This document shows, piece by piece, positions 15,638-15,763 of a DNA stretch of 16,021 bases; positions within the stretch are counted from its first letter, which is position 1, and the number at the start of each line of letters is the position of its first letter. The DNA is from a virus. Taxonomy: Duplodnaviria; Heunggongvirae; Uroviricota; Caudoviricetes. The stretch lies in IMG/VR virus record IMGVR_UViG_2713896785_000012. One strand, 5' to 3'. The notes beneath the pieces are model-generated. The model searched no databases, was not told the DNA's origin, and saw nothing but the letters and a program-made list of their open reading frames with translations. The position numbers and the translations under genes are program-made.

Positions 15638-15763
15638 AAATGTTAACTGCTGCCTGGTTAACATTTGCTGAAAAAGCCAGTTAACATTTTTTCCGCACAA
15701 CAAACTGAATAATAAAGATAAAAACCGCAAAAATGCCCGGACAGCCAGTTAACATGTTAACTG
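15638..15763. promoter_or_regulatory. Cluster of GTTAACAT half-sites: a 10-bp inverted repeat pair and a perfect 18-bp palindrome upstream of the terminase genes; candidate terminase-binding (cosB-like) or operator sites
   Basis: AAATGTTAAC (15638..15647) and GTTAACATTT (15657..15666) are perfect inverted repeats with a 9-nt spacer. GTTAACATTT recurs at 15680..15689. CAGTTAACATGTTAACTG (15746..15763) is a perfect palindrome. Confidence 0.5.

Follow-up and report, generated by a model that had tools for sequence, protein, structure and literature searches.

How ring-shaped small terminases read specific DNA is debated. In phage lambda the R3 site lies at bp 50-65 and the Nu1 gene starts at bp 191 (PMC9026076). 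The small terminase (TerS) of HK97 recognizes one 15-bp A-tract element at +15..+29, which is read while the DNA threads through the ring (PMC11331095). In the G1P proteins of SPP1 and SF6, helix-turn-helix (HTH) domains sit on flexible linkers and make multiple DNA contact points near the cut, and it has proved difficult to show in vitro that G1P binds specific sequences (PMC9611059). Satellites also take part in these systems, as SaPIbov5 and EcCICFT073 (Rpp) carry the cos of their helpers and are consequently packaged by the helper terminase (PMC6092414, PMC9026076).

A further arrangement is found in a caudoviricete record from IMG/VR (IMGVR_UViG_2713896785_000012), analysed here as a window of 16,021 nt, the whole stretch of DNA. 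An array of short repeats upstream of its terminase genes is quite probably a set of cosB-like recognition sites for the HTH domain of TerS, within an HNH-dependent 3'-cos system. No description of the array was found in the literature searched, where the sole paper reporting this cos gives the 10-nt end only. The features concerned are listed below in the order in which the minus strand reads them, with plus-signed positions counted from the packaged left end.

15854..16021, minus strand: 3' part of the HNH endonuclease gene, which continues past the window and ends ...DDIIGL* (stop codon 15854-15856)
15841..15847, no strand assigned: G-run (C7 on the plus strand), 37-46 nt left of the cut
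15795-15804, minus strand: cohesive end and cos cleavage site CGCCCCCCCT with a 10-nt 3' overhang, from the PhageTerm ends of an identical phage
15794, minus-strand reading: +1 of the packaged left end, from the mapped ends of Lys8385Vzw
15764..15794, minus strand: left-end segment +1..+31, CTCACGCAGAGAAAAAATTCCCGTTTCAGGG, with an A-tract, conserved whatever the TerS type
15746-15763, no strand assigned: perfect 18-bp palindrome CAGTTAACATGTTAACTG (CAGTTAACA joined to TGTTAACTG), sites at +34 and +42, spanning +32..+49
15698..15710, minus strand: IHF-like core ATTCAGTTTGTTG, +85..+97, in a spacer rich in T/A-tracts
15678-15689, minus strand: solitary copy CAGTTAACATTT (AAATGTTAACTG on the minus strand), +106..+117
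15636-15647 and 15657-15668, no strand assigned: inverted pair GCAAATGTTAAC-9 nt-GTTAACATTTGC with perfect 12-nt arms, +127..+159
15002..15565, minus strand: TerS gene with a GTG start at +230 (Pfam Terminase_2, E 1.5e-8)
13344..15005, minus strand: large terminase (TerL) gene (Pfam TerL_ATPase and TerL_nuclease)

The window holds the head module found in Stx-converting siphophages, among them BP-4795, 2851, 1717, and many Stx1a, Stx2a, and Stx2c phages. It is matched at ≥90% identity by 94 phage records, most of them above 95%, and the module occurs in 1283 of 5426 complete Escherichia coli genomes, including Stx1, Stx2a, and Stx2c siphophages. A single-protein locus search in IMG/VR returned only relatives of at least 91% identity. 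The minus-strand gene order is HNH, a 288-nt intergenic region, TerS, TerL, a protease-capsid fusion, and portal. Only the 3' part of the HNH gene lies in the window; its full-length BP-4795 homologue matches Pfam HNH (E 7e-7), and relatives are annotated as HNH endonuclease. TerS is preceded by a Shine-Dalgarno (SD) sequence, GGGAGGAGG, at 15568-15576, and relatives have ATG at the codon that is GTG 15565 in the window. At 9767-13280, TerL is followed by the protease/capsid fusion (645 aa; Peptidase_S78 and Phage_capsid) and then by the portal gene; the usual order has portal first.

The position of the cut is known from the Stx1 phage Lys8385Vzw, which, after induction and PhageTerm analysis, was classed as a cos phage with 3' cohesive ends CGCCCCCCCT of 10 nt (Zhang et al. 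2021, PMC7946995). Its deposited record ends in ...GGACACCGCCCCCCCT and begins with CTCACGCAG... (CTCACGCAGAGAAAAAATTCCCGTTTCAGGGCAGTTAACATGTTAACTGG), and the window is 100% identical to it over the genome's first 260 nt and last 30 nt. Because the mapped cut corresponds to 15795-15804, the array occupies +32..+159 of the packaged left end, and the order from the cut is array, then terS (+230). Mapping of virion ends, which the first-pass annotation had proposed as a check, is thus available from the literature for an identical phage, and it puts the cut beside the array. Among the records of the 94 close relatives, none opens at cos; all are prophage-ordered, with phi330 opened inside terS. 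The SfI/SfV cos, TGCCCGCCCC, was considered and rejected as a match, as it belongs to a different module.

The cohesive end is embedded in a conserved core (...GATCGCTCCGGACACCGCCCCCCCT) that extends from about -25 to +31 and is constant across TerS types, and the window left end has a conserved A-tract at +11..+17. Left of the cut, the G-run belongs to the cos flank and is kept in every lineage, including satellites and Acinetobacter, at lengths of 7 to ~11. It may constitute a further cos element, such as a cosQ-like one. In PPompW prophages, the IS110-family element ISEc20 is annotated at the equivalent of this C7/G7 run (~15843), where the match to the window stops. A perfect 11-nt inverted repeat, GGTGTCCGGAG / CTCCGGACACC, is also present at 15804-15814 and 15889-15899, with one arm adjoining the cohesive end and the other, distal arm inside the HNH gene at its 3' end. 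Because the satellites described below lack the distal arm, it is probably not essential for packaging.

Exact copies of GTTAACAT number five in the window, all inside 15640-15761 (strands -,+,+,+,-), whereas dinucleotide-preserving shuffles yield 0.24 on average and never more than 3, with 0 of 200 reaching five. Every copy contains the palindromic hexamer GTTAAC, the array holding five of the seven such sites in the window, and the extended consensus in the minus-strand reading is AATGTTAAC(T/C)G. In the complete 50,953-bp genome of Lys8385Vzw there are six copies of GTTAACAT, five of them within the first 155 nt. A repeat finder resolves the array into three elements, namely an inverted pair, a solitary copy, and a palindrome. 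The five half-site copies reported in the first-pass annotation are thereby borne out, as is the layout that it gave (an inverted pair with a 9-nt spacer, a solitary copy, and a perfect 18-bp palindrome). Its placement of the array within 130 bp of the small terminase start was wrong: with the genes read from the minus strand and GTG 15565 as the TerS start, the copies lie 73-198 nt upstream. The start used was probably the out-of-frame ATG at 15632, which opens a 57-aa open reading frame (15459..15632, minus strand) out of frame with TerS.

Counted from the cos cut, the copies stand at +34, +42, +110, +133, and +148, with irregular spacings of 8, 68, 23, and 15 bp and with both orientations in use. 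Their symmetry had been taken as a sign of a dimeric DNA-binding protein. This is not established by the mixed orientations, the irregular spacings, and the direct repeats seen in one lineage, a layout that would suit an oligomeric TerS with HTH domains on flexible tethers better than it would a rigid dimer. The region gave zero matches to known RNA families at E≤1. Occurrences of the exact palindrome on environmental contigs in IMG/VR, among the matches listed, were set aside as probably due to chance.

The array is strongly conserved in close relatives. In 79 loci ascertained through the TerS protein, and hence unselected on the motif, all five copies are kept in 78, so the motif is indeed conserved upstream of related terminases, a test that had been suggested for it. 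Among the 61 distinct sequences, one of 38 motif-core positions varies, compared with 56 of 191 other intergenic positions (Fisher p=1.5e-4), and variants of 85-90% DNA identity have five copies in an unchanged layout. This pattern suggests that purifying selection acts on the motif and leaves the spacers free to vary. Within the spacers, ATTCAnnnnGTTR recurs at +84/85 in 6 of 6 five-copy lineages despite the divergence around it. The core matches the IHF consensus WATCAANNNNTTR imperfectly, at seven of nine specified positions, and IHF may bind at +85.

More distant relatives point to the origin of the array. The other-genus set comprises 19 loci from a profile-based search, the Salmonella phage FSL SP-016, and one Klebsiella prophage, and its genera include Kluyvera, Phytobacter, Serratia, Atlantibacter, Kosakonia, Rouxiella, Enterobacter, Citrobacter, Erwinia, Pantoea, Buttiauxella, Proteus, and Acinetobacter. 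The layout common to these loci is HNH, G-run, and GGACACCGCGCCCCCT/CTCACGCACAGAAAAAATTCCCCTCTGGAGGGTGTAAAC-ATG-TTA-ACA..., with one near-palindrome (GTAAAC at +34, GTTAAC at +42) overlapping the TerS start codon (Met-Leu-Thr) and terS running from +40. A single near-palindrome at +34/+42, overlapping the TerS ATG, is the condition in most Enterobacterales relatives. The first motif site lies at +33..+36 in every lineage, with the palindrome spot as the probable anchor. The five-copy array thus appears to be a derived E. coli expansion of an ancestral single near-palindrome at the TerS start codon. In the window lineage, the palindrome would have been perfected while the SD sequence before it decayed, and ~183 bp would have been gained together with three further copies, leaving TerS to open with GTG CTG ACA behind a new SD sequence.

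The predicted structure of TerS is compatible with sequence reading by its N-terminus. In an AlphaFold (AF2) model, built from an alignment without the SP-016 sequence, residues 1-55 form four helices at a pLDDT of 92-96, and the helix at 33-41 carries the positions that vary between lineages. Foldseek matches residues 1-55 to the DNA-binding domain of SF6 G1P (4zc3; TM 0.84, rmsd 1.6 Å, probability 1.0) and, also at probability 1.0, to 2cmp and 3zqq, with TM values of 0.82-0.84 for 4zc3 and 2cmp, the entries restricted to the DNA-binding domain; the TerS proteins of PaP3 and NV1 are matched with weaker scores. As modelled, the N-terminus is a G1P/SF6-type HTH DNA-binding domain with the fold of the G1P family. 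Confidence falls to a pLDDT of 52 at 61-70 and below 50 at 70-99, ahead of a helical hairpin at 115-145, and residues 70-99, between the DNA-binding domain and the helical core, could serve as a flexible linker.

The repeat motif changes together with the third helix of this domain, as the following lineages illustrate.

Window and L243: helix-3 (A/E)KTARVKGSQLAK (KTARVK in L243), motif GTTAAC, 5 copies
L239: helix-3 GKTARVKGSRLAK, motif GTTAAC, 6 copies
L240, L244, and L242: helix-3 (E/A)KSARCKGSQLAK, motif ATGTTTA(C/T), 5 copies each in L240 and L244, 3 or more in the partial contig L242
Satellite L234: helix-3 KTARVKGWQL, motif GTTACAC, 2 direct repeats at +33 and +45
Satellite L235: helix-3 KTARVKGWQL, motif GTTACA(C), 6 copies in a 228-nt interval, including an inverted pair

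In E. coli prophages whose helix-3 reads SARCK in place of TARVK, the architecture is unchanged and every copy is ATGTTTA(C/T). Their layout, typified by L240, has the palindrome at +34/+42 and, at +108-110, a solitary copy; it is completed by an inverted pair whose arms are 9 nt apart. Predictions made before look-up held in both cases, GTTTAY for P0033 and GTTAAC for P0021. The sample is small, with about four motif types as independent lineages. The co-variation could in part reflect linkage, as the coding region of the DNA-binding domain is less than 300 bp from the array; five parallel changes within a preserved architecture nevertheless make linkage alone insufficient. A 24-codon hydrophobic reading frame in the array, MLTGCPGIFAVFIFIIQFVVRKKC (15681-15755, minus strand), which runs from the ATG of the palindrome (15755) to a TAA inside the solitary copy, was rejected as a gene because it has no SD sequence and its length is unstable, the counterpart being 24 aa long in L239, 14 in both L240 and L244, and 4 in satellites.

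This switching bears on the role of the segment +1..+31, which stays constant as the repeats change with the TerS helix, a pattern that sets a TerS site apart from a TerL/HNH site. The segment is probably part of cosN or of the TerL-HNH recognition site. Alternatively, it may be an HK97-like shape-readout site for TerS. On that account its A-tract, AGAAAAAATTCCC, would be the true TerS site as in HK97, and the GTTAAC copies would be accessories that enhance affinity or specificity or aid termination. The minimal HK97 site is likewise an A-tract element (+15..+29), +1..+31 is nearly invariant over all lineages and TerS types, and most relatives have only one near-palindrome. Yet the window TerS is unrelated to HK97 gp1 (BLASTP E 1.2, Pfam families not shared), and a motif copy at +33..+36 is retained by every lineage, so that this account of the A-tract is unlikely.

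Satellites that encode their own TerS offer a view of the repeats apart from the other packaging proteins. In islands of one family, TerS genes at 9001-9489 of L233/L234 (P0059) and 2018-2491 of L235 (P0053) encode Terminase_2 proteins with 46-49% identity to phage TerS. They lie directly after a conserved HK97-style cos core with GTTACAC repeats, and tblastn detected neither TerL nor HNH in these satellites. The combination of cos core, TerS homologue, and GTTACAC repeats implies that the helpers of these phage-inducible chromosomal islands (PICIs) probably are phages of the window type, and the lack of TerL and HNH genes beside TerS suggests TerS as the reader of the repeats. L234 also has five GTGAC(A) repeats with a period of ~11 bp at 10940-10990, right after a conserved 93-aa satellite gene.

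If the copies were bound not by TerS but by TerL, the HNH endonuclease, or a nucleoid protein of the host, there would still be islands to explain that carry a private motif variant beside cos with only a TerS homologue to read it. HNH and TerL do differ between the GTTAAC and GTTTAY lineages, as TerS does, with identities of 77-87% for HNH and 93-99% for TerL; this divergence parallels that of TerS and hence does not discriminate against either protein. Among TerS, TerL, and HNH, a sequence-reading HTH was identified here in TerS only, and a fixed host protein fits poorly with the occurrence of three motif types in a single host species, E. coli. Taken with the satellites, these points make a reader other than TerS quite improbable.

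Other satellites have kept the array and dispensed with the terminase genes. Thirty-six E. coli records match the window only over 15638-15810, at 60-80% identity, and the two that were examined are islands of ~10 kb adjoining clpS or yejO, with the matched segment at the island edge. Their genes include an integrase, an HTH regulator, an Icd-like protein, DUF4222, a primase or RepA helicase, SSB, PerC, capsid genes, and the conserved 93-aa protein, and tblastn found no homologue of TerS, TerL, or HNH in these examined array-bearing islands. These islands retain the cos core together with the complete set of copies, five in all, at +34, 42, 110, 134, and 149. In the three copies left unused when finding the satellites, the motif is identical at 24 of 24 positions, compared with 81 of 121 (~67%) elsewhere (p=2.8e-4). 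Homology to the window stops right past the last copy, and next comes an att junction with no downstream gene. That an island dependent on a helper terminase has kept exactly cos and the array favors a packaging role in cis over an operator. Most likely, the array is a packaging signal copied by phage-parasitic islands.

One PICI, L109 (NZ_AP043606), holds three cos elements. Two are exact copies of lambda cosN (GGGCGGCGACCT) in inverted orientation at 13621-13632 and 14359-14370, the first of them 101 nt before an RppC homologue (13722-14156; PDB 6hlk, E 4.5e-31), and the third, near 15,300-15,500, is of the BP-4795 type with a GTTAAC array. The island may exploit two unrelated helper families.

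The terminase-less islands also weigh on the transcriptional or autoregulatory operator for the terminase and late operon that the first-pass annotation had offered as its other reading. Such a role would suit palindromic sites upstream of terS and an ancestral palindrome that overlaps the TerS start codon, and the motif does yield one weak sigma-70-like match. That match, the sole promoter-like one, is on the strand opposite terS, however, and the satellites keep the array beside cos where only an att junction lies downstream. The distance from array to cut is fixed in all lineages, and the head genes of related lambdoid phages are read from an upstream late promoter. The operator is thus unsupported and very unlikely. 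That the copies lack a function and were left behind as the 5' end of terS (ATG TTA AC, Met-Leu-Thr) was duplicated repeatedly has in its favor an ancestral copy coinciding with the TerS start-codon region and a window TerS that still opens GTG CTG ACA, but is scarcely credible for a motif that is invariant while its spacers diverged, changed in concert at five copies in the L240-type lineages, kept its spacing within ~2 bp across lineages, and was retained by satellites.

The cosB-like packaging site, also proposed in the first-pass annotation, gains support from the location of the array between the mapped cut and terS, from its retention by satellites that lack terminase genes, and from the switching of its motif with the TerS helix. 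In this packaging role, a single TerS oligomer would bind the copies in either orientation through several of its HTH domains on flexible links; such tethering would permit both orientations and the uneven spacings (8, 68, 23, 15 bp). The cut-proximal palindrome, fixed at +34/+42, would anchor the complex as R3 does in lambda, and the A/T-tract spacer with its IHF-like core would bend the DNA, allowing the distal copies to reach the same oligomer. The complex would then set TerL, aided by the HNH protein, on the conserved core (~-25..+31) for staggered nicking, and packaging would start toward terS.

A broader proposal, put forward tentatively and with slightly more doubt than belief, is that the repeats and TerS helix-3 residues 32, 35, and 38 (T/S, V/C, S/W) make up a small code for packaging specificity. 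The code would be able to evolve, would have no fewer than three settings (GTTAAC, GTTTAY, and GTTACAC), and would be used by prophages of Shiga toxin-producing E. coli (STEC) and exploited by PICIs. Were such a code to operate, lambdoid prophages resident in the same STEC cell would discriminate their own concatemers, and PICIs would exploit the code in two ways, by copying the helper array or by pairing a TerS variant of their own with a private repeat. Some islands would stack an array-type cos with a lambda-type cos/Rpp to serve several helper families, and induction of an Stx phage would mobilize PICI islands as well. If helpers are hijacked in this manner, satellite virion DNA is expected to end at CGCGCCCCCT. 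The element is common and medically relevant, and from it one could predict the satellites and prophages open to co-packaging upon induction of Stx phages.

In comparison with known systems, the array is the expected cosB analogue for its module, not a new principle. Like lambda cosB (R3-I1-R2-R1, bound by gpNu1), it is situated in the packaged left end, past the cut and before the TerS gene, and contains several short repeats in mixed orientation with a cut-proximal anchor site. An A/T-rich element is placed between the first and second sites in both, bound by IHF in lambda and with an imperfect match to the IHF consensus here. The scale is also similar, with R3 at bp 50-65 and Nu1 at bp 191 in lambda versus +32-49 and +230 here, and complexity varies in both families, from a single R in N15 or a single palindrome here to a multi-site array. 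In contrast to lambda, the TerS is of the G1P/SF6 HTH type (Terminase_2) and not of the winged-helix Nu1 family, the ends are 10-nt 3' overhangs with an adjoining HNH gene instead of 12-nt 5' overhangs, and the motif and cos sequences are unrelated, lambda cosN (GGGCGGCGACCT) being absent from window positions 15300-16021. Because TerS family, end chemistry, and sequences all differ, the locus does not belong to the lambda cosB family, though functionally it would be a cosB.

HK97 shares the order HNH-cos-terS-terL and has cohesive ends that are likewise 10-nt 3' overhangs. Its TerL has ATPase and nuclease domains of the same Pfam families, and its TerS gene, too, starts near the cut (+50, versus +40 in the ancestral layout here). 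Its TerS is non-homologous, and the array is unlike its single-site type; the left ends are unrelated, and GTTAAC repeats are missing from that of HK97. Satellites of this module resemble known PICIs in carrying a helper-type cos. In lambda-type E. coli PICIs the helper cosB is missing and TerS is retargeted through Rpp, whereas those described here either reproduce the whole helper array or bring a TerS homologue of their own, which is accompanied by a different repeat.

With SPP1 and SF6 G1P, the window TerS has the same N-terminal DNA-binding fold (4zc3, TM 0.84). Those phages package by headful from pac, whereas this family is cos-type. Its motif is sharp, spans 8-10 bp, and keeps a constant distance to a mapped cut, and its specificity variants, which occur naturally, pair with one to three changes in the recognition helix. 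A defined motif with natural variants makes the question of sequence reading by TerS directly testable.
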